From Alphaproteobacteria bacterium (lineage in GTDB: Bacteria > Pseudomonadota > Alphaproteobacteria > CAAGCB01 > CAG-977), in NCBI GenBank assembly GCA_021639925.1, contig JAJXEL010000003.1:1-35286 (forward strand): a DNA stretch of 35,286 nucleotides, written 5' to 3'. Under the pieces are notes generated by a model, which searched no databases, was not told the DNA's origin, and saw only the letters and a list, made by a program, of their open reading frames with translations. Within the stretch, counting starts at the first letter, position 1; each line of letters begins with the position of its first letter. Positions 9,776 through 33,133 of the stretch are shown here, piece after piece. The translations under genes were made by a program, and so were the position numbers.

Positions 9776-9810
9776 AAAAGAGAGCCGTTAAAAGCTCTCT
9801 TTTTTGTTTT
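9776..9810 (+). terminator. Rho-independent terminator
   Basis: Perfect 10-bp stem AAAAGAGAGC (9776-9785) / GCTCTCTTTT (9794-9803) with an 8-nt loop, followed by TTGTTTT. It separates the housekeeping operon from the vir operon. Confidence 0.7.
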
Positions 9811-9859
9811 ATTTATATTCGGAAAGGTATTTTTAACGAAATAGAGCCACTATTAAAGA

Positions 9860-10564
9860 ATGGAAAAAAGTATGTCAAATGCGTCTGTCCGCCAAAATAT
9901 CAAGAAAGCCGCGGCTTTGGGAATGCCTCCGGCAGACGGCGGACGTATGTCTACTTTTATGTGGTTATCGCGTTTTTTCAGCGTGTTATGCTTTTTTTTA
10001 ATAACATCGCTGGCTGCTTTGGCGCTTTCCCTGATTCATATTACCAAAGAAGCGGAAGTCAACTCTGTATTGGTGACGGCGCCGACATATTCGGAAAACC
10101 TGTCTTATTTTGAACCGCTGCACCCGGATATGCCCGCGATGGATATTCTGGCGGAAATGTTCGTGCGCCAATATGTGACGGCCAGAAATAACGTTTGGCG
10201 CAATGCGCCTGAAATGCGGCGTATGTGGGGGCCCGGCGGCGTTGTGCGTTATATGTCAACGCCGGCTGTATATGATGATTTTGTCCGCCGGGAAGTCGGC
10301 AGATATTTTCCCGAACCCGAATATGCTCCGAAGGTTATGGTTGAAACGGATATCAAAAAAATTATTAAAGAAGGCTGGAACAGCTGGCAGATTTTTTTTG
10401 ATACCCGTAAAATGGACACGTCAATCAGCCAGCCGGTTGTTGAACATTGGATCGCCACCATACAGTTTCGTTACTATTCCGATAACGCCGTAATGTTTTC
10501 CCGTCTGCGCAATCCGCTGGGATTTACGGTAACTCAATATCATCTGGCCCGTCAGAAAAAATAA
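9860..10564 (+). CDS. virB8: VirB8-like T4SS inner-membrane protein, paralog 1
   Basis: Bitopic topology: short N-terminus, TM (FFSVLCFFLITSLAALALSLI), then a periplasmic domain of about 170 aa. It has the C-terminal RLRNPLGFTVTQY motif, which matches the NPxGF signature of VirB8. It is clearly paralogous to 10789-11562 (shared RQYV..RN, WGP.G..R.MS...VY..F and RL.NPLGF.V..Y). Confidence 0.65.
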   Translation: MEKSMSNASVRQNIKKAAALGMPPADGGRMSTFMWLSRFFSVLCFFLITSLAALALSLIHITKEAEVNSVLVTAPTYSENLSYFEPLHPDMPAMDILAEMFVRQYVTARNNVWRNAPEMRRMWGPGGVVRYMSTPAVYDDFVRREVGRYFPEPEYAPKVMVETDIKKIIKEGWNSWQIFFDTRKMDTSISQPVVEHWIATIQFRYYSDNAVMFSRLRNPLGFTVTQYHLARQKK

Positions 10565-10582
10565 AAGGGGAGGAATAAAAAA

Positions 10583-10777
10583 ATGAAGAAAAAAATAATC
10601 GGCAGAATGTTTTTTATGATCGCTTTGTGCGCCGTGTTGAATTCATGCGGCTCTATTTATGAAAAAGAACCGATCGGAATAGGCCCGGATATTTCTGAAT
10701 TGAAACGTTCTCCGTGCGCTTGTATGCTTTTAAAACTGCCGGCCGATTTGCCTGAATGGATAACGGCTCAGGGATAA
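10583..10777 (+). CDS. Small lipoprotein in the VirB7 position
   Basis: 64 aa with a signal peptide and a lipobox-like VLNSC|G, preceded by a strong RBS (GGGGAGGA). The call rests on position between the virB8 paralogs and on size. No VirB7 sequence motif was recognised. Confidence 0.45.
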   Translation: MKKKIIGRMFFMIALCAVLNSCGSIYEKEPIGIGPDISELKRSPCACMLLKLPADLPEWITAQG

Positions 10778-10788
10778 CGGGATAAAAA

Positions 10789-11562
10789 ATGATGCCAAAA
10801 CCGGTAAAATCAAAACAACAGCTGACAGTCAAAGAATCTGACGATAAGCCTTTGCAAAAAGGCGGGCCGCGCGGCAATGTCGATTTGAAAAAAACAGCTG
10901 CGGAAGAAACGGCACGCGAAGAAATTTCGGTGGATCTGCTGCGTGAAAGGCGTTATCTGTGGACGGCTCGCGCTTTTGCGATCGTTTCCGCCGTAGCGCT
11001 GTGCGTTAATTTGGTTTTACTGCTGGCGATTGTTCATATGATGCCGTTGAAACGTGTCGAACCGTTTTTGCTGACATTCCAGAACAAAGACGAACAGGTC
11101 GTCAAGATCCGTCCTTTGGCAAAGGACATGTCGGCCGAAGACATTATTTCCGAAGCCATGATCCGGCAATATGTTTTGCTGCGTAACACTATGATTTCCG
11201 ATGTTGACGAAATGTCGTTCCGCTGGGGGCCGGACGGTCCTTTGCGCTGGATGTCTTCGGCGCAGGTGTATAACCAGTTTGCCAAAACGGTAAAAGACTG
11301 GCTGTCCAGAATTAAATTGGAAGGCTTGACGCGTGAAGTCAGAATTGAATCCGTCGTCCGCAACCAGAACATTTGGCTGGTTTATATCGTTACGCGCGAT
11401 ATGCTGCCGGAAGCCGAAGAACCTGCCATTTCGCGTTGGCGTATCCGCTTGTCAATCAAGTACTTCGCCAAAGATCAAAGAGAAGTCAAATATATCGACC
11501 GTTTGAAAAATCCGCTGGGATTTGCCGTCGATGGATATGCTATTGAAAGTGCTAACGATTAA
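10789..11562 (+). CDS. virB8: VirB8-like T4SS inner-membrane protein, paralog 2
   Basis: Cytoplasmic N-terminus of about 60 aa, TM (FAIVSAVALCVNLVLLLAIV), a periplasmic NTF2-like-sized domain and the C-terminal RLKNPLGFAVDGY. Confidence 0.7.
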   Translation: MMPKPVKSKQQLTVKESDDKPLQKGGPRGNVDLKKTAAEETAREEISVDLLRERRYLWTARAFAIVSAVALCVNLVLLLAIVHMMPLKRVEPFLLTFQNKDEQVVKIRPLAKDMSAEDIISEAMIRQYVLLRNTMISDVDEMSFRWGPDGPLRWMSSAQVYNQFAKTVKDWLSRIKLEGLTREVRIESVVRNQNIWLVYIVTRDMLPEAEEPAISRWRIRLSIKYFAKDQREVKYIDRLKNPLGFAVDGYAIESAND

Positions 11563-11574
11563 AGAAGGTGTCCC

Positions 11575-13110
11575 GTGAAAAGAAATTTTAAAATCCGCCT
11601 TTTTGCTTTTGTTTCATTGTCGTTGTGTTTTTTAACGCACACAGCTGCGGCACAGCAGACGGCGGCGCGTGAATCAATGGACGCGGCGATTGAACAGTCA
11701 AACGGACAATATTCCGAAATCGATATGCCGTTTTGGTCTTTGGGCATGCAGCAAAAAGCATGGAACAAACCGATGGAGCATTTGGGCGAAGGACAGTCCA
11801 AACCGGGGTATTCCAGATATCATTGGACGCCTGATCTGGTTTTGCCTTTGCGTATCCGGGAAGGCATGCATACGCTGATTAATTTCCCGTCCTGGGAATT
11901 GATTGAAAACGTTTTTTTGGGAAATGAAAGCGCTTTTGGCGCGCAGAAAGTCGCGCAAAACGCTTTGATGGTTTTCGCGGCAAGCGTTGATCTGGTCGGT
12001 ATGGATACGAATATGATTGTTTTCGGCCGTTCCGGCAACCGATACGTTTTTTATTTAAGAAGCGAAACCTTTAATACGGACAGAATTACAAACTCTGTCG
12101 TTGATATTGTTGTCAATGATACGAAATTTGTTCCCGACGATTCCGGACAGACGCCTTTTGCTTCCGGCGCTGTCGGCGCGGGAGCTGCTTCTGTCGCGGG
12201 GGGCGCCGGAAATTTCAGCGGCGGCAGTCTGCGCGGCGGAAAAAAAACGACGACAAAAAACGGAACGGAAGACTGGCTGGCGGATATTGAAGTCGATCCC
12301 GAAAAACTGCGTTTCGACATTGACGTTTTTATTCCGAATCCGGCTGATATGGAAATTGCGCCCGAACGTGTCTGGCGCGATGAAATTTTCACTTATATTG
12401 ACTTCGGGCCGAAAGCTTTGACAATGACGGAACGCCCGATCGTCAACCTGTTGTCGCAAGGATCCGAAGTGCCTATCGGATTCAGAACGCGCGGACCGAA
12501 CGGCAGACTGATGGTTGTCGAAGGAATCGGCGATTTGGTTTTGCGCAACGGAAAACGTATTTTATGCCTGAAAATCAGAAAAGATCCGACTTACGGCACC
12601 GAATGGGTGGAATATGAAGAATCTGTCCAGCCGAAATGGTCGCCTGGCCCGATGATTACGACGGGCGGTTATAATATGTCTGCGGGCGGTGCCGGCGGCG
12701 GCGCGGTTAATATGAATATGCAGGCGGCGGCGAATGCCATGATGATGCCGGCCGGGGCGAACGGAACGTTGTCGGCTAATCAGATCGCGCAGTTTTCACA
12801 GACAGGGCGCGGCAGTTCCCGTACGGTACAGCGTTATCGCGGCGCGCCTGTGGAAACGATTGCCGTCGAGCTGGGATCTGACAGCGAAATCGCGCCGCTG
12901 GAACAGAAATGGGATAATATTTCTCGCAGAAACAAAGATCTGCTCGGCGGGTATGAACCGTATTATTCCGTTGACGCTGTGGCGGAAGGCGAATCAAGGG
13001 ATTTGTTCCGTTTGCGCATCGGTCCTGTTGACAGTATCGAAGCCGGGGACAAATTATGTAATCAATTAGGTCGCCGCGGGGTGACTTGCATGGTTGTGCG
13101 GACACAATGA
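11575..13110 (+). CDS. virB9: VirB9/CagX/TrbG-family outer-membrane core protein with a C-terminal SPOR-like domain
   Basis: GTG start after a GAAGG RBS, with signal peptide MKRNFKIRLFAFVSLSLCFLTHTAAA. The N-terminal VirB9 domain reads LRIREGMHTLINFPSWELIENVFLGNESAF...TNMIVFGRSGNRYVFYLRSE. The C-terminal VirB9 domain reads PERVWRDEIFTYIDFG...LMVVEGIGDLVLRNGKRILCLKI. The last 85 aa or so resemble a SPOR domain. Confidence 0.8.
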   Translation: MKRNFKIRLFAFVSLSLCFLTHTAAAQQTAARESMDAAIEQSNGQYSEIDMPFWSLGMQQKAWNKPMEHLGEGQSKPGYSRYHWTPDLVLPLRIREGMHTLINFPSWELIENVFLGNESAFGAQKVAQNALMVFAASVDLVGMDTNMIVFGRSGNRYVFYLRSETFNTDRITNSVVDIVVNDTKFVPDDSGQTPFASGAVGAGAASVAGGAGNFSGGSLRGGKKTTTKNGTEDWLADIEVDPEKLRFDIDVFIPNPADMEIAPERVWRDEIFTYIDFGPKALTMTERPIVNLLSQGSEVPIGFRTRGPNGRLMVVEGIGDLVLRNGKRILCLKIRKDPTYGTEWVEYEESVQPKWSPGPMITTGGYNMSAGGAGGGAVNMNMQAAANAMMMPAGANGTLSANQIAQFSQTGRGSSRTVQRYRGAPVETIAVELGSDSEIAPLEQKWDNISRRNKDLLGGYEPYYSVDAVAEGESRDLFRLRIGPVDSIEAGDKLCNQLGRRGVTCMVVRTQ

Positions 13111-16100
13111 ACGAAGAATTACTCAGCTCATCAGACAGATACTTAAAAAAATCCAACAAGATGTTGTTGATTGTCGGGATTATAGCCTTTTTGGCTTTCC
13201 TGACAGGGGTTATTGTTTTGTTGAGCGGAGGCGAAGAAGGCAAGAAAGACGCCGAAGTCACTATTGGCGGATCGGCGGAAAGCTCCAGCAGTATTACCGG
13301 CGGCAATGCGGATACGTTTAATCTGGCCGAAGAGCCGGCTCCTTCAACCGTGCGGCTGGTCGTAACGCCGGAAACAATGCGTTTCGATCAGGTTGTGCTG
13401 GGTACTGTGGCGGAAGGAACGTTGACATTGTCGGCTTCTTCCGGCCGGATCAGTATTACTTCGATAGAGTTTGAAAATAAACAGGAAGACGGCTTTGTCC
13501 TGGAAAACAAATGCCGTAAAGACATTGTCCTGACCGGTGATGTTACCTGTAACGTTGTTGTTCGCTGGGAACCAAAGACGGCGCGGACAATCCAGTCTAA
13601 CCTGGCGGTCCGCTGGGCTGATGAAACATTCGGCGGTATCGGCAGAAAAGTCATTGTTCCCATTTCGGCAATGGCGATTGACACCAGCATGTGCGGCGTC
13701 TGCGATGAAGCGCCGGGCAGCGGCGGTTCCATGCTTGACCAGTTGCGTCAAAAAGGACGCGTTATTTTGGGGCCCGACGGAAAACCGATCGGTTATGCCG
13801 ATGAAAACGGCGTTGTTTACGGGCTGGACGGCAAACGGATAGGCACTTTGCGCGAAGACGGAACGGTCGTTGACGATCAGGGGTATGTGATCGGCGTGGC
13901 GGAAGGAACTCGGCTGGCAATCGGCCCGAACGGAGAAATTCTGGGAACGATTTTACCTGACGGGCGTGTCATTGACAAAGACGGCCGCCTGATCGGTTAC
14001 GCTTTGCCTGACGGAACGATCGTCGATCTGGACGGAAATGTTATCGGGTCGGCGGTAAGAACGGGAATAGCTTATGATAAAAACGGCAATCCGATCGGAC
14101 GGATTATGCCTGACGGAACGGTCGTTGATGAAAACGGAAATATCATCGGCTATTTAAATCCGGACGGAACGATTGTCGATGCCAACGGAAACATTATCGG
14201 ATCGGTCGCGCCGCAGGGCACCGTTGTGGACGCTTCGGGCAAAGCGTTGGGCATTGTTATGCCGGACGGAACGGTCGTTGATGCCGACGGCAACATTATC
14301 GGCCGCGTTCTGCCTAACGGTTTTGTCGTTGACAGAGACGGCAACATTATCGGCCGCGTTGTTAAAGAAGGACTGGCCATTGGTCCCGGCTGCCGTATGA
14401 TTGGCCGGATCAGTACGGACGGTTCCGTTATGTCTTCAAACCGGCAGGTCGGGCGTTTGACGGCGTCAATGACGGTTGTCGACATGTCGGGCAATCCGAT
14501 CGGCGGTTATGTGGAAGAAGGGGCTTTGATTGACTGGGCCGGAAAAATTGTCGGTAAAGTGGATCAGGACGGCCACCCGGTCAGTTTCAAAGGAGATCCT
14601 CTGGGGTGTCTGACGCCTTACGGCACAGTTGTTAATGATGCCGAAGAAATTATGGCGGCCGTTTTGCCGAAGGGAACCGTTGTCGGCACGCAATGCGGCG
14701 TTGTCGGGCGCGTTATGCCGGACGGCAGCGTTGTCGGCGACGGGCAGATCAAAGGGCGGATTTTGCCGGACAAATCATTTTTGTCGACAGAAGGAAAAAT
14801 TGAAGGAGCCCTGGCGCGTCAAAATGTCGGCGTCGGGCCGGGGTGCCTGTCTTTGGGATACGCCAATATAGACGGGCAGGTTATTACGGCGAAGGGGGAA
14901 TTTGTCGGTTGTCTGGCGGCGAACGGAGAAATTCTGGATAATCAAAAAGTCGTTTTGGGCCGGATTCTTGATTCTGCCATCGCGTTAAACGCGGACGGTC
15001 GTGTCGTCGGTATTATGGATCCCGCCGGCAAGATTCAGGATAAACAGGGAAAAATTCTGGGGTGTATGGATCCCGACGGTTTGGTAATAAATTCCAAAAA
15101 TGAATCGGTCGGTATGCTGATGCCGATAGGCGGCGTTTTGGATCGCGACGGCCGAACAATCGGCTGGGTCATGCCGGACGGGTCTGTTTCCAACGCCAAA
15201 AACAGTACGATCGGCAAAGTCATGCCGGACGGAACCGTAATTGATTTGAGCGGGCAGACGGTCGCGCGTGTCGCCCCGCATAAAGGCGTCGCGTTAAGAA
15301 GCGCCTGCGAACCGGCCGGTACCATTTTGGTTGACGGCCGTGTCGTGGACAAAGAATTTAAACGATCGGCCTATATTCAGATGAATGATACGCTGGTTGG
15401 TGAAAACGGAGATTTTGTCGGTCGTGTCGCTTACGGATCGCGGGCAATCAGTCCTAAAGACATGTATCTGGGGACAACGGCAAACGATGGCGCGCTGTAT
15501 AATCCGGCAGGGGAAAAAATCGGCTGTCTGCGTCCGGATTCCTTGTTTGTTGATTCAAATAATAAATTTTTAGGGGCAGCTTTACCCGAAGGAATCGCCA
15601 TTAATAATAAATCAGAGCTATACGCCCGCGGCGATTCGATTGCCAAAGCTTTGAATTTAAAGGGAACTGAATTTATCGGATCAATAACGCTCAGCAGTTT
15701 TGTCAAGGAAGGCGATACGATTTCCGGCGGTATTATTCCGGACAGAGCCGATGTTCTGGATATTAAAACCAGCGAAAAAATCGGCCGTCTGCTGCCTGAC
15801 GGAACGGCTTTGGATTTGCTCAGCCGTTATTTGGGGCGTTTAAGAATGCCCGGCGGCGAAATCGTGAACAAAGACGGCCGCGTCGTCGGTAAAATATTTG
15901 TCGGCATGCGGCAGGTGATCGGCCCGAACGGAGAAATTCTGGGCGTTGTCATGCCTGACGGAACGGTTGTTGACGCTTCCGGCCGCGTTATCGGCAAAGC
16001 GGATCTGAACGGAAAAGTGGTTGACGCTTCCGGGCGCGTCATCGGCGAAGTTATTCCGGTCGGCCAGCCGATTATAGGTCCTGACGGTAAAATTATCGGT

Positions 16101-19100
16101 TATGTCGGCATCGACGGGCAGATCGTTGACAAAGACGGCAATCCCGTTTTGGGTCCTGACGGAAAACCGCTGCGTTACCGGGCGGGCGGATCTGTCGTTG
16201 AAGACAGCGGAAAAGTGATCGGCAGAATCGGCGACACGCTGGAACGCCTGGTGTATGATGAAAACGGCAACGTGATCGGCCGTGTTCTGCCTGACGGAAC
16301 GGTTGTTGATTTAAACGGCAACGTGATCGGGAAAATGCTGCCCGACGGAACGGTTGTTGATTTAAATGGAAACGTTATCGGGCGGGCCGGGCCGCCGGAA
16401 CGGCTGGTATATGATGAAAACGGCAATCTGATCGGCCGTGTTCTGGCCGACGGAACGGTCGTTGATTTGAAAGGCAACGTGATCGGCCGTGTCCAGGCTG
16501 ACGGAACGGTAACCGCCCTGGGGTCAAAAGTGATCGGTTATACTGTTAAGGACGGTCTGGGGCTGAACTTTAAAAATGAAATTATCGGCAAAATCGATTC
16601 TTCCGGACAGCTGAAAGAAGCGGGATCGGATAAATCTCTGGGGGTTCTGCAGGCGGACGATACGATTACCGACAGCCGAAACGCCATTATCGGCAAAGGG
16701 GTCGTGAACGCTGTTCCCGTCGGGCTGCAATGCCAGATGCTTGGTTCGATTGATGACAAAGGGCAGGTCATTGATACGGCGGGCCGGCAGATCGGGCGGC
16801 TGAATTTTGACCGGACTTTGGTTAATTCCGGTAATTCTCAGATCGGTTTGGCTTTGGGGCAGGAATCTATCATCAACGAACCGTGCAAAATCATCGGACA
16901 AATTACGGCGGAAGGAAAAGCCGTTGATACCAAAGGCGCGGAAATCGGCTGCGTTGATTTTGAAGGATTGGTAAAAGATAAAAACGGCAAACGTTTGGGG
17001 CGTATTGTCCAAAAAGGACAAATTCGCGGCCCTGACGACCAAATGATCGGCAGGATTGTTTCCAGCGGCGAAGCGTTGGGGGCAGAGGGGAATGCCTTAG
17101 GCTGTTTTTCTGTTGACGGGGCTGTTTTAGATAAAAATAAAAAAATTCTGGGGGTCGCGGCGGACATGAAATATGCCGTTGACGATCAGGGAAAAATTGT
17201 CGCGCATATTCTGGGCGGAACGTATGGCGTTAATCCCGAAGGCGGCGCTTTTGTCGGAACGTTGAACGGGCAGAATTTAACCGGATCTGATAATAAACAG
17301 CTGGGCGTTCTGGTGCCTTCCGGCCGGCGTGTGATCGCCGTGGACGGCAAAACGATCGGTACCGTTTTGCCCCGCGGACGCGTTCATAACGACCGCGGAG
17401 AAGAAATCGGCTATGTTACGTCTTCAATGCGCGTTTTAACCGGCGACCGTAAGTTTTTAGGCCGTGTCGTTCCGATCGGCGAAGAATGTAAAGACGGTAA
17501 AAATAATGTTGTCGGAACCGTTCATTTCGACGGGACGATTGTTGATGAAAGAAAGCAGGTCCTGGGACGTTTGCTGGCCAGCGGGCAGGCTTTGGATAAT
17601 GCCGGGGCGCATTTATGCATGATCTCTTTAATCAGCACAAATGACGACGGGTCTTTGTTCCCGAAAGGGTTAATCGGCAAAATGGTTTACGGGCCGGACG
17701 GCAAACCTTTGGGGGTTGTCGGCGCTGACGGTTTTATCCGCGATGCGAACGGCAATATTATCGGCCGTGTTCTGCCTGATGGTACGGTCGTTGATTTAAA
17801 CGGCAATGTGATCGGCAAAGCGTATCCGAAAGGGGCCGTGTTCAGCCCTGACGGGAAATTCCTTGGAATTGTTGATGCGGACGGGTATCTGCGCGATGAA
17901 AACGGTAACATCATCGGCAGAATGTTGCCGGACGGAACGGTCGTCGATATTAACGGCAACATTATCGGCCGCGCTTTGCTGGAAGATGGCATTGTCGATT
18001 CAAAAGGAAATTTCCTGACCAGAGCGGGTGAAGACCGGCTGGTATATGATGAAAACGGCAACGTGATCGGCCGTGTTTTACCCGACGGAACGGTTGTTGA
18101 CTTAAACGGTAAAGTCATCGGAAAAATGCTGCCCGACGGAACAGTCGTTGATTTGAACGGCAAGGTTATTGGTAAAGCTGCTCCGGCCGGTCAGTCAAAA
18201 AATGTCCGTATAGCCGTCGGCCGTGACGGAAAGTTCTTGGGCATTGTCGGTGAGGACGGTTTTGTCCGGGACGAAAACGGCAATATTATCGGCCGTGTTC
18301 TGCCTGACGGTACGGTCGTTGATTTAAACGGTAATGTGATCGGTTCCGTTATTGAAGGGGAACCGATGCGCGACGAAAACGGCAATATCATCGGTGTTAT
18401 TATGCCCGACGGACGGGTCGTTGACCTGGACGGCAATGTGATCGGACGCATTAATGCAAACGGAGAAATCGTTGACGCGGACGGAACCGTTTTGGGAACG
18501 TGGCGCGGCGGAAAACTGACGGCGATGAGCGACAAGCTGCAACAAAAACGTTTTGCTTTCGGCAAAGACGGCAAACGGATCGGCATGATTATGCCCGACG
18601 GAACGGTCGTTGATGAAAACGGCAATATTATCGGCCGCGTTGATGAAAACGGTAATGTTATTGATCTGGACGGCAATATTATCGGGACGGTTACGGATCC
18701 GGGGGCGGTCGCCGGACAACAAGGGGGCCAAGGGGACCAAAAAGATGACCGTGTGTCTATTTTTGGCACTTTTGATCCGGATAATTACCGGTATCGCGGC
18801 AAATCTTTGGGGGCCGGCGGCGGCACCGGAAAAGGGGAACGTTACGATCCTGCCCGGATTAAACAGCTGCGGGCGCTGCAGATGGCTTACCGCCGCCAGA
18901 TCAGGCCGGGGCGGGGAATAGGTATAGCCTCTGTTGAAGAAGATTTGATGAAAAAACAAAAACGCAGCAAAAACTGGAATGCTTTGGGGATACAGAAAAA
19001 TGTTTCTTCATATCGCGTCAACATGGATAATATGATTTTGGCGGATAAAGCGATTCCTGCCGTTTTGGCGCGTTCTATTGATACGGAACAGGAAGATATT

Positions 19101-19973
19101 CCCATTTCCGCGATTGTTGAGCGCAATATTTATTCCGAATCAGGACGTAAAATTATTATTCCCGCCGGCAGCCGTATTATCGGTGAATTGTCGGGTACGT
19201 CCGCTTCTGAAGAAGTCGGGTCGGCTTCGAAAGTCGAAATTGAATGGACCCGCCTGATTCGTCCGGACGGCGCAGCGTTCCAGTTTGAAGAAGGCGTTTC
19301 CGGCGATGCTTCCGGCCGCGCGGGCGTCGGCGCGTATATGGATCGTCAGCTGATGAAGAAATACGGGCTGCCGGTGGTTCAGTCAACAATTACTTCTGCG
19401 ATTTTGTATGCGATGGCGACAAACGATTCCGCGGCTGTCGGATCTGAAGGCGAAGTCGCTATGTCCGGCCGTCAGCAGGCGGCGGAAGATGCGCGTACCA
19501 GATTTTCCGATACGATGCAGGAAATTTTTGATGATTTAATTACCGAAACGTCAAAGCTGAAAACACGTTTGTTTGTTCCGGCCGGGACGCGTATTACTGT
19601 TTTTGCTAAATCTGATCTGTGGCTGCGCAGCTCTTTGGAAGACGAGGAAGAAGAAAACGGCGAAATCACGAAGCCTAATGTTTTGTTGGATCCGGATAAA
19701 GAATTCCCTGAAGGAGAAACAACGCCGGCACAAGGCGGCGACGTCAATACCAATAATGCAAACCAGGGAAATCCGAATGATCCGAATAACTTGCAGCAGC
19801 AGCAGCAAATTTATTATAATAACTACGCCGGCCAGCAGCCGCAGCAACAGCCTCAGCCGCCGCAGCTGATTGATCCCAATAAACACAAACAGCAGCCGCA
19901 GCAACTTGTTCCGCAGCAGACAATGCAGGAAAAGAAAGAAGAACCGGTTGATCCTGTTCCCGAGCTTTTCTAA
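13107..19973 (+). CDS. virB10: Giant VirB10/TrbI-family T4SS core protein (about 2,288 aa) with a large internal tandem-repeat region
   Basis: ATG 13107 overlaps the virB9 stop (ATGA). The N-terminal TM is MLLIVGIIAFLAFLTGVIVLL. The C-terminal TrbI/VirB10 pattern lies at about 19020-19630: ILADKAIPAVLARSIDTEQEDIPISAIVERNIYSESGRKIIIPAGSRIIGEL, VEIEWTRLIRPDGAAFQF, GDASGRAGVGAYMDRQL and LFVPAGTRITVFAKSDLWL. About 1,640 aa of 17-aa repeats lie between the two ends. Confidence 0.85.
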   Translation: MNEELLSSSDRYLKKSNKMLLIVGIIAFLAFLTGVIVLLSGGEEGKKDAEVTIGGSAESSSSITGGNADTFNLAEEPAPSTVRLVVTPETMRFDQVVLGTVAEGTLTLSASSGRISITSIEFENKQEDGFVLENKCRKDIVLTGDVTCNVVVRWEPKTARTIQSNLAVRWADETFGGIGRKVIVPISAMAIDTSMCGVCDEAPGSGGSMLDQLRQKGRVILGPDGKPIGYADENGVVYGLDGKRIGTLREDGTVVDDQGYVIGVAEGTRLAIGPNGEILGTILPDGRVIDKDGRLIGYALPDGTIVDLDGNVIGSAVRTGIAYDKNGNPIGRIMPDGTVVDENGNIIGYLNPDGTIVDANGNIIGSVAPQGTVVDASGKALGIVMPDGTVVDADGNIIGRVLPNGFVVDRDGNIIGRVVKEGLAIGPGCRMIGRISTDGSVMSSNRQVGRLTASMTVVDMSGNPIGGYVEEGALIDWAGKIVGKVDQDGHPVSFKGDPLGCLTPYGTVVNDAEEIMAAVLPKGTVVGTQCGVVGRVMPDGSVVGDGQIKGRILPDKSFLSTEGKIEGALARQNVGVGPGCLSLGYANIDGQVITAKGEFVGCLAANGEILDNQKVVLGRILDSAIALNADGRVVGIMDPAGKIQDKQGKILGCMDPDGLVINSKNESVGMLMPIGGVLDRDGRTIGWVMPDGSVSNAKNSTIGKVMPDGTVIDLSGQTVARVAPHKGVALRSACEPAGTILVDGRVVDKEFKRSAYIQMNDTLVGENGDFVGRVAYGSRAISPKDMYLGTTANDGALYNPAGEKIGCLRPDSLFVDSNNKFLGAALPEGIAINNKSELYARGDSIAKALNLKGTEFIGSITLSSFVKEGDTISGGIIPDRADVLDIKTSEKIGRLLPDGTALDLLSRYLGRLRMPGGEIVNKDGRVVGKIFVGMRQVIGPNGEILGVVMPDGTVVDASGRVIGKADLNGKVVDASGRVIGEVIPVGQPIIGPDGKIIGYVGIDGQIVDKDGNPVLGPDGKPLRYRAGGSVVEDSGKVIGRIGDTLERLVYDENGNVIGRVLPDGTVVDLNGNVIGKMLPDGTVVDLNGNVIGRAGPPERLVYDENGNLIGRVLADGTVVDLKGNVIGRVQADGTVTALGSKVIGYTVKDGLGLNFKNEIIGKIDSSGQLKEAGSDKSLGVLQADDTITDSRNAIIGKGVVNAVPVGLQCQMLGSIDDKGQVIDTAGRQIGRLNFDRTLVNSGNSQIGLALGQESIINEPCKIIGQITAEGKAVDTKGAEIGCVDFEGLVKDKNGKRLGRIVQKGQIRGPDDQMIGRIVSSGEALGAEGNALGCFSVDGAVLDKNKKILGVAADMKYAVDDQGKIVAHILGGTYGVNPEGGAFVGTLNGQNLTGSDNKQLGVLVPSGRRVIAVDGKTIGTVLPRGRVHNDRGEEIGYVTSSMRVLTGDRKFLGRVVPIGEECKDGKNNVVGTVHFDGTIVDERKQVLGRLLASGQALDNAGAHLCMISLISTNDDGSLFPKGLIGKMVYGPDGKPLGVVGADGFIRDANGNIIGRVLPDGTVVDLNGNVIGKAYPKGAVFSPDGKFLGIVDADGYLRDENGNIIGRMLPDGTVVDINGNIIGRALLEDGIVDSKGNFLTRAGEDRLVYDENGNVIGRVLPDGTVVDLNGKVIGKMLPDGTVVDLNGKVIGKAAPAGQSKNVRIAVGRDGKFLGIVGEDGFVRDENGNIIGRVLPDGTVVDLNGNVIGSVIEGEPMRDENGNIIGVIMPDGRVVDLDGNVIGRINANGEIVDADGTVLGTWRGGKLTAMSDKLQQKRFAFGKDGKRIGMIMPDGTVVDENGNIIGRVDENGNVIDLDGNIIGTVTDPGAVAGQQGGQGDQKDDRVSIFGTFDPDNYRYRGKSLGAGGGTGKGERYDPARIKQLRALQMAYRRQIRPGRGIGIASVEEDLMKKQKRSKNWNALGIQKNVSSYRVNMDNMILADKAIPAVLARSIDTEQEDIPISAIVERNIYSESGRKIIIPAGSRIIGELSGTSASEEVGSASKVEIEWTRLIRPDGAAFQFEEGVSGDASGRAGVGAYMDRQLMKKYGLPVVQSTITSAILYAMATNDSAAVGSEGEVAMSGRQQAAEDARTRFSDTMQEIFDDLITETSKLKTRLFVPAGTRITVFAKSDLWLRSSLEDEEEENGEITKPNVLLDPDKEFPEGETTPAQGGDVNTNNANQGNPNDPNNLQQQQQIYYNNYAGQQPQQQPQPPQLIDPNKHKQQPQQLVPQQTMQEKKEEPVDPVPELF
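13765..18695 (+). repeat. In-frame tandem array with 51-nt (17-aa) period, consensus about P-D-G-T-V-V-D-x-x-G-N-I/V-I-G-x-V/M-L, on the order of 90-100 units
   Basis: At 14104-14360 there are five consecutive exact-length units: PDGTVVDENGNIIGYLN, PDGTIVDANGNIIGSVA, PQGTVVDASGKALGIVM, PDGTVVDADGNIIGRVL and PNGFVVDRDGNIIGRVV. Well-conserved blocks sit at about 13765-14370, 15920-16540 and 17690-18695, separated by degenerate units. The unit count is region length divided by 17, not an exact count. Confidence 0.85.
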
Positions 19974-19991
19974 AACAATACGAGGGGTAAA

Positions 19992-20969
19992 ATGAGTACG
20001 GATTCCTTTCAGGTTTTAAAATCAACATTGCGTTATCTGTCCTATTGGTATGAACAGGATAACGTGGAAGAAGTTGCCATTAACCGGCCGAATGAAATCT
20101 GGCTGCGCCTGCGCGGGCGCCGGGCTCATCCCTGGGCGTGCCAGCAGGACGCGAACCTGTCCAGAACATATTTGACGGATATTATGCATATTATCGCCAA
20201 CACTTTTGAATTGCCGTTTGACCCCGAACAGGGATCGCCGGCCGTTTATGCCACTTTGCCGGGCGATCACCGTTTTACGGGAATTGCCGGTAAAAACGTC
20301 ATGTATGATAATGAAGATTTAACCGGCGGTATCGCTATGTGCGTGCGCGTTCATTCCGACGACGTCAAATTCGGTTTGGGCGATTACGGGTTAAAATCAG
20401 GGGAACGTCTGCAAAAATTGAATAAATTAAAAGAAGTGGAAAATCCCGAAGATCCTTACGAACGTTTAATTCTGTCGATTAAACGCGGCGACCATATTTT
20501 GGTTTCCGGGGCGACGGCAACCGGTAAAACAACATTTTTGAATAACCTGCTGACAATTTTGGATTCACATAAACGGGTGATTACGATTGAAGATACCCGC
20601 GAATTGATCGTTCCGCACCCTAATCATGTTCATTTGGTGTTGTCGCGTACCGAACAGACAAATACGATGACATATCCGAAACTGATTGACCTGGTCGTCC
20701 GTTTTACGCCTGACGCGATTATCGGAGGGGAAATTTCGACGGCAAACGCGGGGGCGTTGTGGGAATTGATGGGATCCGGGCATGATAACTGCTTTGCGAC
20801 AATCCACGCCGAAAATTCCGAAGCTGCTTATAAAGCGTTTACAGACCGTATTTTGCATTGTTATCCGACGATTGACCGCGAAAAAACGATTTCCGAAATG
20901 CATGACAAACTGCGTGTTGTCCAGATTAACCGCCAGGGCAATATCCGCGCCGTAACGGAAGTAACCTGA
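19992..20969 (+). CDS. virB11: VirB11 T4SS traffic ATPase
   Basis: Motifs EVAINRPNEIWL, Walker A SGATATGKTTFLN, ITIEDTRE, GGEISTANAGALWELMGSGHDNCFATIHA. A GAGGGG RBS lies upstream. Confidence 0.9.
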   Translation: MSTDSFQVLKSTLRYLSYWYEQDNVEEVAINRPNEIWLRLRGRRAHPWACQQDANLSRTYLTDIMHIIANTFELPFDPEQGSPAVYATLPGDHRFTGIAGKNVMYDNEDLTGGIAMCVRVHSDDVKFGLGDYGLKSGERLQKLNKLKEVENPEDPYERLILSIKRGDHILVSGATATGKTTFLNNLLTILDSHKRVITIEDTRELIVPHPNHVHLVLSRTEQTNTMTYPKLIDLVVRFTPDAIIGGEISTANAGALWELMGSGHDNCFATIHAENSEAAYKAFTDRILHCYPTIDREKTISEMHDKLRVVQINRQGNIRAVTEVT

Positions 20970-21035
20970 TTTATCCGAAAAATTATCGTTTGAATTTACG
21001 GGAAAGAAAGTATATATCTGTTCCCGAAAGGTTAG

Positions 21036-29976: not shown

Positions 29977-31737
29977 ATGCGTCGTTTTATTTTCATCTGT
30001 CTGTGCATTGTTTTTGCCGTTTTAATGACGCGCCGGTTTTATCTGCGCGGTAATGTCCTCGAATCTTTAAAGAACGACCGCGGATCTGTTTTTCTTTACT
30101 TTCCCGATGCGGCCCGCAGTGCGGTAAAAGTTCTGTCGGCCGAAGGGATCGCGTTGGAAAAAAGGCTGCCGCACTGTCAGGCCGAAGATTCAAAATGCCT
30201 GCTGTTTACGATTAATACGGAACTGTTTTTTCAAAAGGCCGAAATCCGTATTCAGTCCGCTCAGACCGGTCCGGCGGAAATTGTGTTTATGGGGCCTTTG
30301 TCCGAAAAACTGAAACAGCGCCGGATAGAAGTCGATTTTAAAAATTTTTATTTGGACGGAACGCCCGTTTTTCATCATATAGAAACCGGTTGGCGACATT
30401 TCCCGGTTGTTTACGGATTTAATGTGGAAAAAGACAGACCCGTATCGATATCGTTTGAATACCGCAGGCATTTGCCGGCCGGCGAAAACATTGACTGGCT
30501 GTTGTTAATGACGATTGCCGTTGCCGCGGGATTGATCGCAGGACGGGCGGAACCGTTCTTTTTCGGTTTTGTCCGGCGGATTTATGCAAACGGCACGATA
30601 GGGCGGAAAATTTTTCTGACTTTGTTCTTTGTGATTTTGTGCGTACCGGGATTGCGCATTAATCATGAAGACAGATCCTTTTTGGAAAACAGAGGGTTAA
30701 GGCCGAAACCCAATTTGATCATGCGCGGTAAAAACGGCGAAAACGGATTGTTTTTGAAATACGGTCAATATTTTGATTTTTGGTTTAACGATCGTTTTTT
30801 CGGGCGGCTGGAAGCCCTTTCTTTTTATCATTTTTTGCAGAAACATCTGCGTTTTCGCCTGAAAACGCCGAAAGCTTTTGTCGGAAAAGACAAAGATATT
30901 TTTCAAACGCGGGATACGGAAATTTTCAATGCCGCCTATATTGCACGGTTGAAAAAATATTTTAACCGTTATGCCCGGAATTTGAAAAAAATGAGGCTTT
31001 GGGCGGAAAAAAACAATATTAAAATGTATCTGGTTATCGTTCCCGTCAAAGAAAGCGTTTTGTATGACCGGCTGGGCAAAGGCGTTCCCGGCGATACGCG
31101 GGAATATGACCGCTGGGTTAAAAAGCTGGCGCGTAAATCCGGCGTAAATATTATTTATCCGAAAGAAAAACTGATACAAAAAGCAAAAACGGCTGAAGAT
31201 CTGATATTTTTCAAACAGGATCATCATTATACCGAATACGGTTTTTTCTTTATTTACCGGGAGCTGATGAAACAAATAAAACGCGATTTTCCGGATATTC
31301 CCGTGTTGTCGGAAAAAGATTTTTCCGTTTCTTATGATGACCGCGTGCGCCACGGGTACGATTTGCGCGAATGGCAGAAATTATCCCATTTGTGTACAAC
31401 GCTGATGATTTTTAATCAGGAAGAATGTCACAGCTATGCCCGCCCGTACCGGTATTATCAGTATCGTCATGTGGAAAAAGTGCGGATAAAAAGAATAAAC
31501 GAAAAGATTACCCGTTATTTTAATCCGGACGGCAGATACGGTCTGTATATTCTGGGGACTTCCCATGTCAATCAGCTGGCTTCGATCATGCCGTTTGCTT
31601 TTAATCGCGCGGTCAAAGAAGTCGGAGAAGACAGAGATATAACGAAAAATAACGTTCTGCCTTTTAAACCGGATATTCTGGTGCTGGTTTTGCAGTCAAC
31701 GGTTTTTGATAAGCTGGACAGGTTATTTAAGGAATAA
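29977..31737 (+). CDS. AlgX/AlgJ (DltD-like) polysaccharide O-acetyltransferase-family protein with an extra membrane-anchored N-terminal domain of about 220 aa
   Basis: The C-terminal half carries FLENRGLRPKP...FDFWFNDRFFGR and FKQDHHYTEYG, which matches the D-x-H-W/Y signature of AlgJ/AlgX SGNH-like acetyltransferases. It sits immediately upstream of an MBOAT gene. TM segments are at the N-terminus and around aa 175-225. Confidence 0.55.
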   Translation: MRRFIFICLCIVFAVLMTRRFYLRGNVLESLKNDRGSVFLYFPDAARSAVKVLSAEGIALEKRLPHCQAEDSKCLLFTINTELFFQKAEIRIQSAQTGPAEIVFMGPLSEKLKQRRIEVDFKNFYLDGTPVFHHIETGWRHFPVVYGFNVEKDRPVSISFEYRRHLPAGENIDWLLLMTIAVAAGLIAGRAEPFFFGFVRRIYANGTIGRKIFLTLFFVILCVPGLRINHEDRSFLENRGLRPKPNLIMRGKNGENGLFLKYGQYFDFWFNDRFFGRLEALSFYHFLQKHLRFRLKTPKAFVGKDKDIFQTRDTEIFNAAYIARLKKYFNRYARNLKKMRLWAEKNNIKMYLVIVPVKESVLYDRLGKGVPGDTREYDRWVKKLARKSGVNIIYPKEKLIQKAKTAEDLIFFKQDHHYTEYGFFFIYRELMKQIKRDFPDIPVLSEKDFSVSYDDRVRHGYDLREWQKLSHLCTTLMIFNQEECHSYARPYRYYQYRHVEKVRIKRINEKITRYFNPDGRYGLYILGTSHVNQLASIMPFAFNRAVKEVGEDRDITKNNVLPFKPDILVLVLQSTVFDKLDRLFKE

Positions 31738-31741
31738 AAAA

Positions 31742-33133
31742 ATGCTTTTTTCTTCAATGACTTTTTTGTTTCTGTTCCTGCCGGCCGTCTGCGCTGTTTA
31801 TTATCTGGTTCCGAAACGGTTGAAAAACGACGTTCTGCTGGCGTCCAGCTTTTTCTTTTACGCGTGGGGCGAACCGCATTACGTTTTCATTATGATCTTG
31901 TCGGTTTTTATCAATTATGCCGGCGCGCTGCTGATTGAAAAAACGAATTTTAAAAAGCTCTTTTTGGCTTTGACCATACTCTTAAACCTGGGATTTCTGG
32001 GATATTTTAAATACTTTAATTTCCTGGCTGAAAACATTAATCTGCTGCTGCGCCGTGATATTGATCCGCTGAAAATCATTATGCCGATCGGTATTTCTTT
32101 TTATACGTTTCAAGCGATGTCGTATGTGATTGACGTTTACCGTAAAACGGCGCCGGCGCAAAAAAACATATATAATCTGGCATTATATATCGTTTTGTTT
32201 CCGCAGCTGGTAGCCGGGCCGATTGTCAAATATCACGATATCGCCGCCCAAATCGACGGCAGGGAAGAGGATATTGATAAAGTATACCGCGGTATTCTGC
32301 GGTTTATCGGCGGACTGGCGAAAAAAGTGATGATTGCCAATACGCTGGGCGCCGTGGCTGATGAAATTTTTGCCGCAGATCTGCAATATATTTCCGTTTT
32401 CCTGGCCTGGATCGGGGCGTTGGCCTATATGTTCCAGATTTATTTTGATTTCAGCGGATATTCCGATATGGCGATCGGACTGTGTCTGGTTTTCGGATTT
32501 AAAATTCCCGAAAACTTTAATTATCCGTACATATCAAAATCTATTACGGAATTTTGGCGGCGCTGGCATATTTCATTGTCAACGTGGTTTAAACAGTATC
32601 TGTATATTCCTTTGGGCGGCAACCGGATATCCAAAGCCAGGACAGCCGTCAACCTGATGATTGTCTTTCTGGTAACCGGATTTTGGCACGGCGCCAGCTG
32701 GAACTTTATTTTATGGGGATTCTGGCACGGCTGCTTCATTGTTATTGAAAAACTGAGCGGACTGAATACCGAAAAACCGGGAATCTTCAGAAACGCTTTG
32801 CTGCGGGGGTATGCGATGCTGGTCGTCGTGCTCGGCTGGGTGATGTTCAGGGCGGACACGTTGCCTGCCGCCGCGGCTTATTTCAAAAAGATGTTCGGCC
32901 TGATCCCCGATAAATATGCCGCCCTGAATCCGGTTTATTATGTTGACGGACAAGAACTGCTGGCTTTTGCCTTCGCAGTTTTGCTGTCAACGCCTGCCGC
33001 GCGGAATTTTTTTGACACGCGGGGAAAATACCGTTCGGCCGCCGTTCAGATCGTTATGCTGGTTTTGTTCCTGATTTCGGCGTCGATGATTGCCGCCGGG
33101 ACATATAATCCGTTTATTTATTTCCGGTTTTAA
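31742..33133 (+). CDS. MBOAT-family membrane O-acyltransferase (AlgI/DltB-like)
   Basis: Motifs FWRRWHISLSTWFKQYLYIPLGGNR and FLVTGFWHGASWNF in a polytopic protein. I chose ATG 31742 (MLFSSMTFLFLFLP...) rather than the track start at 31706. Confidence 0.85.
   Translation: MLFSSMTFLFLFLPAVCAVYYLVPKRLKNDVLLASSFFFYAWGEPHYVFIMILSVFINYAGALLIEKTNFKKLFLALTILLNLGFLGYFKYFNFLAENINLLLRRDIDPLKIIMPIGISFYTFQAMSYVIDVYRKTAPAQKNIYNLALYIVLFPQLVAGPIVKYHDIAAQIDGREEDIDKVYRGILRFIGGLAKKVMIANTLGAVADEIFAADLQYISVFLAWIGALAYMFQIYFDFSGYSDMAIGLCLVFGFKIPENFNYPYISKSITEFWRRWHISLSTWFKQYLYIPLGGNRISKARTAVNLMIVFLVTGFWHGASWNFILWGFWHGCFIVIEKLSGLNTEKPGIFRNALLRGYAMLVVVLGWVMFRADTLPAAAAYFKKMFGLIPDKYAALNPVYYVDGQELLAFAFAVLLSTPAARNFFDTRGKYRSAAVQIVMLVLFLISASMIAAGTYNPFIYFRF

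Follow-up and report, generated by a model that had tools for sequence, protein, structure and literature searches.

A giant VirB10 of gut Alphaproteobacteria with a long array of three-hairpin domains, a candidate periplasmic collar

The DNA analysed here (the window, 35,286 nucleotides) belongs to an alphaproteobacterial genome (G000) of 2.09 Mb and 97.7% completeness, and carries the gene order virB8-virB8-virB9-virB10-virB11 on its plus strand (Table 1). In the junction DNA the stop codon of virB9 overlaps the ATG of a giant virB10, and the virB9 product has a C-terminal SPOR domain (PF05036, E 8e-5; window 11575-13110). The ATG at 13107 is the likely start of virB10, because homologues begin at the same methionine, and the N-terminal helix that follows presumably serves as the inner-membrane anchor. 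The Pfam family matched weakly by the Ig-like domain is also annotated (precomputed) on homologue P0123, and two Cys pairs, 143/155 and 203/206, are conserved in this domain or just past it. The TrbI domain is closest among PDB entries to ComB10 (2bhv, E 4e-16), followed by TrwE (E 1e-8) and CagY (E 1e-7). The NCBIfam VirB10 equivalog cut-offs are not reached (NF038091, 89 versus 220 bits; NF038092, 104.6 versus 300 bits), and as judged from its sequence the protein is a divergent member of the VirB10/TrbI family, a subfamily of its own. With the canonical VirB10/TrbI/ComB10 proteins of ~400 residues it shares the transmembrane helix, the C-terminal TrbI domain and the place between virB9 and virB11, but it is five to six times longer, and the Ig-like domain and the array replace the linker. 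The variable tail closes with Leu-Phe (window 19960-19973) in many homologues, fused and split.

Table 1 Features of the virB8-virB11 region, in window coordinates; residue numbers follow the 2295-residue (TTG) numbering
Feature	Position	Strand	Details and evidence
virB8, paralogue 1	9860..10564	+	234 aa; PF04335 E 7e-15
virB8, paralogue 2	10789..11562	+	257 aa; PF04335 E 5e-23
virB9	11575..13110	+	PF03524 E 6e-14; TIGR02781 E 3e-11
Giant virB10	13107..19973	+	2288 aa from ATG; 2295 from upstream TTG
N-terminal transmembrane helix	13161..13226	+	aa 26-47; sequence; hydropathy in homologues
Ig-like (ASH-like) domain	13359..13700	+	PF15780 E 0.018, below cut-off
Array of ~31 three-hairpin 51-aa domains	13755..18701	+	aa 224-1872; HMM and eye
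Stapled block 1	14391..15527	+	Cys pairs 436/508, 537/609, 587/660, 741/814
Stapled block 2	16731..17105	+	Cys pairs 1216/1289, 1267/1340
TrbI/VirB10 domain	19035..19625	+	aa 1984-2180; PF03743 99.3 bits vs cut-off 35
Gln/Pro/Asn-rich C-terminal tail, variable	19626..19973	+	mean identity 0.36, 19 family members
virB11 ATPase	19992..20969	+	TIGR02788 E 1e-42

Other contigs of the genome hold virB4, two virD4, one virB2-like and three virB6-like genes. The rvh system of Rickettsiales has scattered loci, a duplicated virB8 and several virB6 genes; in the genome here virB8 is present twice, virB6-like genes number three and virD4 genes two. The VirB6-like genes are polytopic and in tandem, one of them above the PF04610 cut-off (G000:C24:10165-15040; C77:4902-7220; C54:7899-10118, with the VirD4 loci), and one of the two VirD4 genes adjoins a gene for a pentapeptide-repeat protein. 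Neither a search with one query nor tblastn found virB3 in the source genome, where the contig with virB4 is truncated at the 5' end. The TrbI domain was matched in 28 of 28 genomes of the order; the virB10 frame has 1975-2684 codons in 25 of these, is cut by contig ends in two and is broken in one. In G007 (L017:10564) the frame breaks inside the TrbI domain, through mutation or assembly error. The genes present are best read as a chromosomal, lineage-wide type IVA secretion system. Matches to a relaxase family, variable in length and number, occur in 21 of the 28 genomes, and because the system is present in all 28 while these matches are patchy, protein delivery or contact functions are mildly favoured over DNA transfer.

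The middle of the giant VirB10 is built from a 17-residue repeat, which an earlier note had described at 14104..14360. This segment lies in frame inside the ORF 13086-19973(+), as residues 340-425 in TTG numbering, and its translation gives five 17-residue units. The strict period reported there is real: over residues 225-1875 the identity at lag 17 is 0.258, whereas 200 shuffles gave 0.082 ± 0.007 and at most 0.100. Lags 34, 51 and 68 also show peaks. Within the array the G-x-h-h-G motif recurs at a spacing of exactly 17 in 33 of 52 cases and the strict unit pattern is matched by 11 units. All five Cys-bearing units listed in the note (GPGCRMIG, GPGCLSLG, GLQCQMLG, EPCKIIG and GTQCGVVG) are present. 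The array extends well past the segment first described, over ~1650 residues, and has a structural period of 51 = 3 x 17 residues; neither feature was in the earlier note. It is not an assembly artefact, since contigs of two other public DNA runs cover all 30 of 30 bins of window 9800-21000. Contigs from RNA runs cover 10/30 and 9/30 of the bins at low depth, which does not establish transcription.

The note could not name the unit, but a Pfam search does: the repeats match Bflower_2 (PF21785, E 1.8e-127, 417.9 bits versus a cut-off of 38), Bflower (PF21784, E 1.7e-40, 138.4 versus 25 bits) and, in four stretches, DUF3659 (PF12396, E 3.1e-49, 165.1 bits versus a gathering threshold of 24.8). 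The last agrees with the DUF-annotated relatives that the note had mentioned, represented by proteins P0257, P0266, P0269 and P0275. No Pfam match was obtained to RTX, pentapeptide, MORN or cell-wall-binding repeats, as expected by eye. The note would have counted a confident match to a well-characterised repeat family of known function as its refutation, and the outcome goes halfway: the matches are confident, but the families have no known function. The hairpin-tip motif [DNEQ]xxG occurs at columns 6-9, 23-26 and 40-43 of the 51-residue domain, and by these profile matches the 17-residue unit is a known, catalogued hairpin motif.

We consider it highly probable that three such hairpin units close into a six-stranded, pseudo-three-fold domain of 51 residues. 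An Asp-Gly or Asn-Gly turn is found at the two internal linkers in 1912/3208 and 1734/3208 modules, against 93/1846 at the junctions between modules. Among 11175 pairs, the co-evolving pairs 4-38, 4-21 and 5-50 hold rank 51 or better in all three successive modules, and their nine equivalents across junctions rank 1270 or worse; the expected symmetric pairs 21-38 and 15-32 score weakly in this direct-coupling analysis (DCA), the rows of which come from related proteins. An AlphaFold2 model of three modules (region 16707-17165) has a pLDDT of 94.8 and a pTM of 0.85, and structural alignments to PDB chains land on model ranges 1-51, 51-101 and 102-153. A single-sequence model of four unstapled modules reaches a pTM of 0.47, so that rigidity outside the stapled blocks is not established. 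Neither model has a helix of four or more residues. Of the stacked hairpins or beta-solenoid suggested previously, the hairpins are present in both models and the solenoid is not, as the chain closes after every three hairpins. In terms of domains, the segment 14104..14360 corresponds to the second and third hairpins of domain 3 (aa 326-376), followed by domain 4 (aa 377-427). The profile was seeded with 22 window modules set by hand, and the count of ~31 domains consists of 29 distinct HMM-detected domains and about two degenerate ones read by eye. Among 4276 modules only glycines and core hydrophobic positions are conserved, and no polar residue is invariant.

Beta-flowers (PF21784, PF21785 and PF21786, clan CL0395) have 8, 10 or 12 strands in 4-, 5- or 6-fold arrangement, and many, not all, enclose a C-terminal helix (Durairaj et al. 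2023, PMC10584680). The array has in common with them the hairpin unit and its [DNEQ]xxG tip; it differs in having six strands, three-fold symmetry, no helix, ~31 copies in tandem and Cys pairs between domains. DUF3659 has a related VDxxGxVIG motif, and the linkers of the DUF3659-rich proteins follow a different pattern. Closure after six strands, seen in co-evolution, in turns and in the linker positions of DotG and CpaB proteins, speaks against a string of ordinary 4- or 5-fold beta-flowers and indicates that the 4- and 5-fold Pfam labels misstate the architecture of these proteins. Three small proteins of G232 (L040:3679-4185, L041:2686-3981 and L041:4143-4457), encoded outside any secretion cluster, have an unbroken 17-residue period and a terminal hydrophobic segment, and are probably true beta-flowers.

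The domains are arranged head to tail and all dock in the same way, with position 9 of domain i facing position 31 of domain i+1. This contact is Cys-Cys in two blocks and elsewhere mostly Gly against Arg or Lys. The earlier note had treated cysteine as a mark of degenerate units; on the contrary, the cysteines are the most strongly co-evolving positions of the array. Cysteine occupies column 9 in 12.1% and column 31 in 12.2% of 4276 modules, and at most 0.6% at other columns. Among 3061 adjacent module pairs (spacing 46-58 with both columns filled, others being dropped), Cys9(i) and Cys31(i+1) are both present in 511, only one or only the other in 1 + 1, and neither in 2548, so that Cys9 has its partner in 511 of 512 cases; other offsets give 0.17-0.27. 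Shuffling the order 1000 times gave a mean of 69 and a maximum of 99, against 514 observed, and Cys9(i)-Cys31(i+1) is the top DCA pair (9.5, versus 2.5 for the next). Where 9/31 is not a Cys pair, Gly usually faces Arg (662) or Lys (439). As the DCA and module-pair rows come from related proteins, orthologous sites were checked separately: nine pairs in 20 family members gave 174 Cys-Cys, one gap and five losses, all five of which take out both cysteines. The partners lie ~73 residues apart and bridge neighbouring modules, and this pattern of joint presence and loss makes them most probably inter-domain disulfides. Two DsbA-like proteins are encoded in the genome; DsbB was not found in six of six genomes searched (G000 and five relatives), despite the conserved Cys pairs. 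In Helicobacter pylori, which lacks DsbA/DsbB, the repeats of CagY were modelled with disulfides (PMC10706595).

The domain is not confined to VirB10. An alignment profile matched 1986 representatives; among the 150 matches listed, 62 also matched the TrbI or N-terminal queries, 46 were scanned with Pfam and 26 with NCBIfam. At least 18 DotG/IcmE-like proteins of 605-914 residues (P0164, P0168, P0170 and 15 more) carry it in their middle region; they score 272-373 bits with NF033900, below its cut-off of 750, their modules follow at a spacing of 54 in 32 of 81 cases, and the 9/31 Cys staples are absent from all 18. At least six Tad-pilus CpaB proteins that pass the CpaB cut-off (P0173, P0177, P0212, P0219, P0241 and P0272), from Gammaproteobacteria where named, hold 2-11 copies. 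In both the DotG and the CpaB proteins three-hairpin units are set apart by variable linkers. Further carriers are the four DUF3659-rich proteins named above, in which the Pfam scan found no secretion-system domain, an OmpA-domain protein (P0198) and a divergent VirB10 of 1973 residues. Because the TrbI domain of the window has no significant BLASTP match to the DotG-like P0168, it is plausible that type IVA VirB10 and DotG took up the domain separately.

In a sample of 401 genomes from the class the repeats were matched at E<=1e-8 in 23. Loci were examined for 16 of the 19 matching genomes outside the own family, and 15 of these 16, from ten families, adjoin virB9/virB11 homologues or carry TrbI; the exception is G232. 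A protein search with the TrbI region gave 1067 proteins of 1262-4017 residues, and the best 120 of them all carry PF21784 and PF03743 (78 fused forms, 31 C-terminal halves preceded by a leader, and 11 that are truncated or of another type). Fused forms have 23-41 modules (102 proteins). Relatives that carry a name belong to uncultured Alphaproteobacteria, among them UMGS1296, RUG12246, HGM16787 and UBA2903, which we assume to be RF32-like gut lineages. In G382 and G049 the cluster runs virB2, a virB3-sized gene, virB4, several secreted proteins, virB8, virB8, virB9, virB10 and virB11. Behind virB4 or ahead of virB8 lie genes for four to six secreted proteins (L018:2137-7051; L048; L049; L050; L051; L052), almost none of which belongs to a Pfam family; they may be VirB5-like. 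In three genomes a type IVb-pilus-like cluster (TcpQ, secretin, PilO and ATPase) lies divergently beside virB2 (G000:C142; L052:12313-18987; L050:2820-4439).

VirB10 is encoded by two genes in some families, unlike canonical VirB10. The chain is split at a module junction at four loci (L030, L039, L031 and L036, in G083, G382, G134 and G186), and L045/L046 of G081 is probably a further case. One product is the half anchored by the transmembrane helix, the other the TrbI half with a signal-peptide-like leader, and both new ends are conserved. The best 30-row tree places four changes, and a single origin is compatible with the data (p-AU 0.152).

VirB10 connects the inner membrane to the outer-membrane ring, and in small systems a Pro-rich linker lies where the array lies here. 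We place the array with good confidence in the periplasmic middle part of the giant VirB10, where it would be flanked by the helix in the inner membrane and the TrbI domain at the outer membrane. By analogy with other large VirB10 proteins, we suggest that it forms a collar or scaffold around the channel, a reading to which we give a probability of roughly 0.55. A volume estimate of ~2.3 nm per 5.3-kDa domain would give ~70 nm for 31 domains, longer than the usual periplasm of 20-30 nm, so that the copies would have to coil or pack around the channel. The O-layer of small systems is 14-fold (PMC9371333). With ~14 copies, ~2.4 MDa would surround the channel as a collar, in which the Cys staples would stiffen two segments into two belts, and the unstapled segments could vary in length. 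A TrbI half secreted with its own leader would fit a self-assembling periplasmic mass. For DotG and CagY, too, the collar is a proposal: 10.1101/2023.03.22.533729 suggests that their repeats form one, which conjugative systems lack.

Alternatively, the array could be an extensible strut, a spacer or telescoping linker that spans an unusually wide envelope or extends in secretion and transmits the force of the inner-membrane ATPases to the ring in the outer membrane. The rigid docking between modules predicted by the three-module model would suit such a role, as would the near-constant lengths of the stapled blocks in family members (405-412 and 153-156 aa) beside the variable unstapled ones (59-368 and 275-502 aa). 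However, the 23-41 modules of the fused forms are a wide range for a ruler, and covalent continuity must be dispensable because several families cut the chain into two genes inside the array, which makes the strut unlikely.

An adhesin or variable antigen displayed on the cell surface, a role that has been proposed for the repeats of CagY and suggested for those of DotG, would agree with the variable number of modules and with hosts that record titles and gut metagenomes associate with the gut, and PMC6761968 argues that the DotG and CagY repeat regions are exposed. Against it, the array lies between a single transmembrane helix and the TrbI domain, no second transmembrane helix being found in homologues of the giant VirB10, and conservation is higher in the first four modules (0.82) than in TrbI (0.69). 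The domain also recurs in CpaB, a periplasmic ring protein, and we regard surface display as improbable.

Little also speaks for units that bind a ligand (cation, peptidoglycan or lipid) and anchor the machine in the cell wall by avidity. The turns are rich in Asp and Asn, the array is net acidic (209 D+E versus 172 K+R), P0198 joins the domain to an OmpA domain, and the clan of the beta-flowers also includes Tubby and scramblase domains (PMC10584680). The cation binding once proposed for the turns is nevertheless unsupported: the turn Asp is present in 40-53% of modules and is often Asn, Ser or Gly, and just 13% of 3361 modules have the three symmetric Asp at once. Nor is any polar residue invariant, which speaks against ligand binding in general. 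Tubby-like binding, moreover, needs a 12-strand barrel around a helix, both of which the array lacks. Finally, summed scores exceed the cut-offs for PF21785, PF21784, PF05593 and TIGR01643, and going by the Pfam labels the array would be made of ordinary 4- or 5-fold flowers or be a sheet of the Rhs kind. This is very improbable: the chain closes after six strands, no stretch passes alone for the two YD/RHS families, Rhs chains align at a TM of 0.11-0.15 with an rmsd above 16 Å, and the flower-like proteins of G232 are unlike the array.

The collar reading invites comparison with the two systems for which large VirB10 repeat regions have been debated. Helicobacter pylori CagY (1927 aa) is likewise a giant VirB10; its TrbI domain is homologous and its middle is taken up by a long stretch of repeats. 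These are alpha-helical, however, and the two cysteines of a pair stand three residues apart in one module, whereas the array is all-beta with pairs across modules. Legionella DotG/IcmE (1048 aa, type IVB) is homologous to VirB10 and also has repeats in its middle region, which is variable; unlike the array, its repeats are 10-residue or pentapeptide-like and poorly predicted. NF033900, the DotG/IcmE model, has no match to the window protein at E<=0.001, and the TrbI domain of the window is type IVA-like, unlike that of DotG.

The array is a third repeat type at the same position of VirB10, unrelated to the CagY and DotG repeats. Those large repeat regions model poorly, which is in part why their role stays debated (10.1101/2023.03.22.533729). 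As the domain here folds confidently, has an interface defined by covariation and occurs naturally in DotG-like proteins, the collar idea is testable with small fragments, and if true this would be the first collar-forming repeat open to atomic-level modelling. A broader proposal, which we hold tentatively and at somewhat less than even odds, is that the 51-residue unit extends the beta-flower series by a three-fold form whose structure is still unsolved, and that it serves as a building block of the periplasm in general, which type IVA VirB10, type IVB DotG and the CpaB of Tad pili each acquired on their own. In gut Alphaproteobacteria it would then build a megadalton, disulfide-stiffened collar, whose self-assembly would be good enough for VirB10 to function as two separate proteins. 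That the repeat motif is catalogued and that giant repeat-bearing VirB10s exist is already known. The core type IV secretion system found here in at least 11 families of small-genome Alphaproteobacteria is apparently undescribed: the literature covered, mainly open-access papers, yielded no paper on this giant VirB10, the text of PMC12306168 that was covered does not mention secretion, and a passage of 10.1101/2024.03.18.585509 only cites the beta-flower.

Two further observations concern the remainder of the window. At 1-221 an 18-bp tandem repeat codes for a Gln-rich stretch, upstream of a BatD-like gene, and at 29977-33133 an AlgX-like SGNH gene is paired with an MBOAT gene, likely a unit for the acetylation of a surface polymer.
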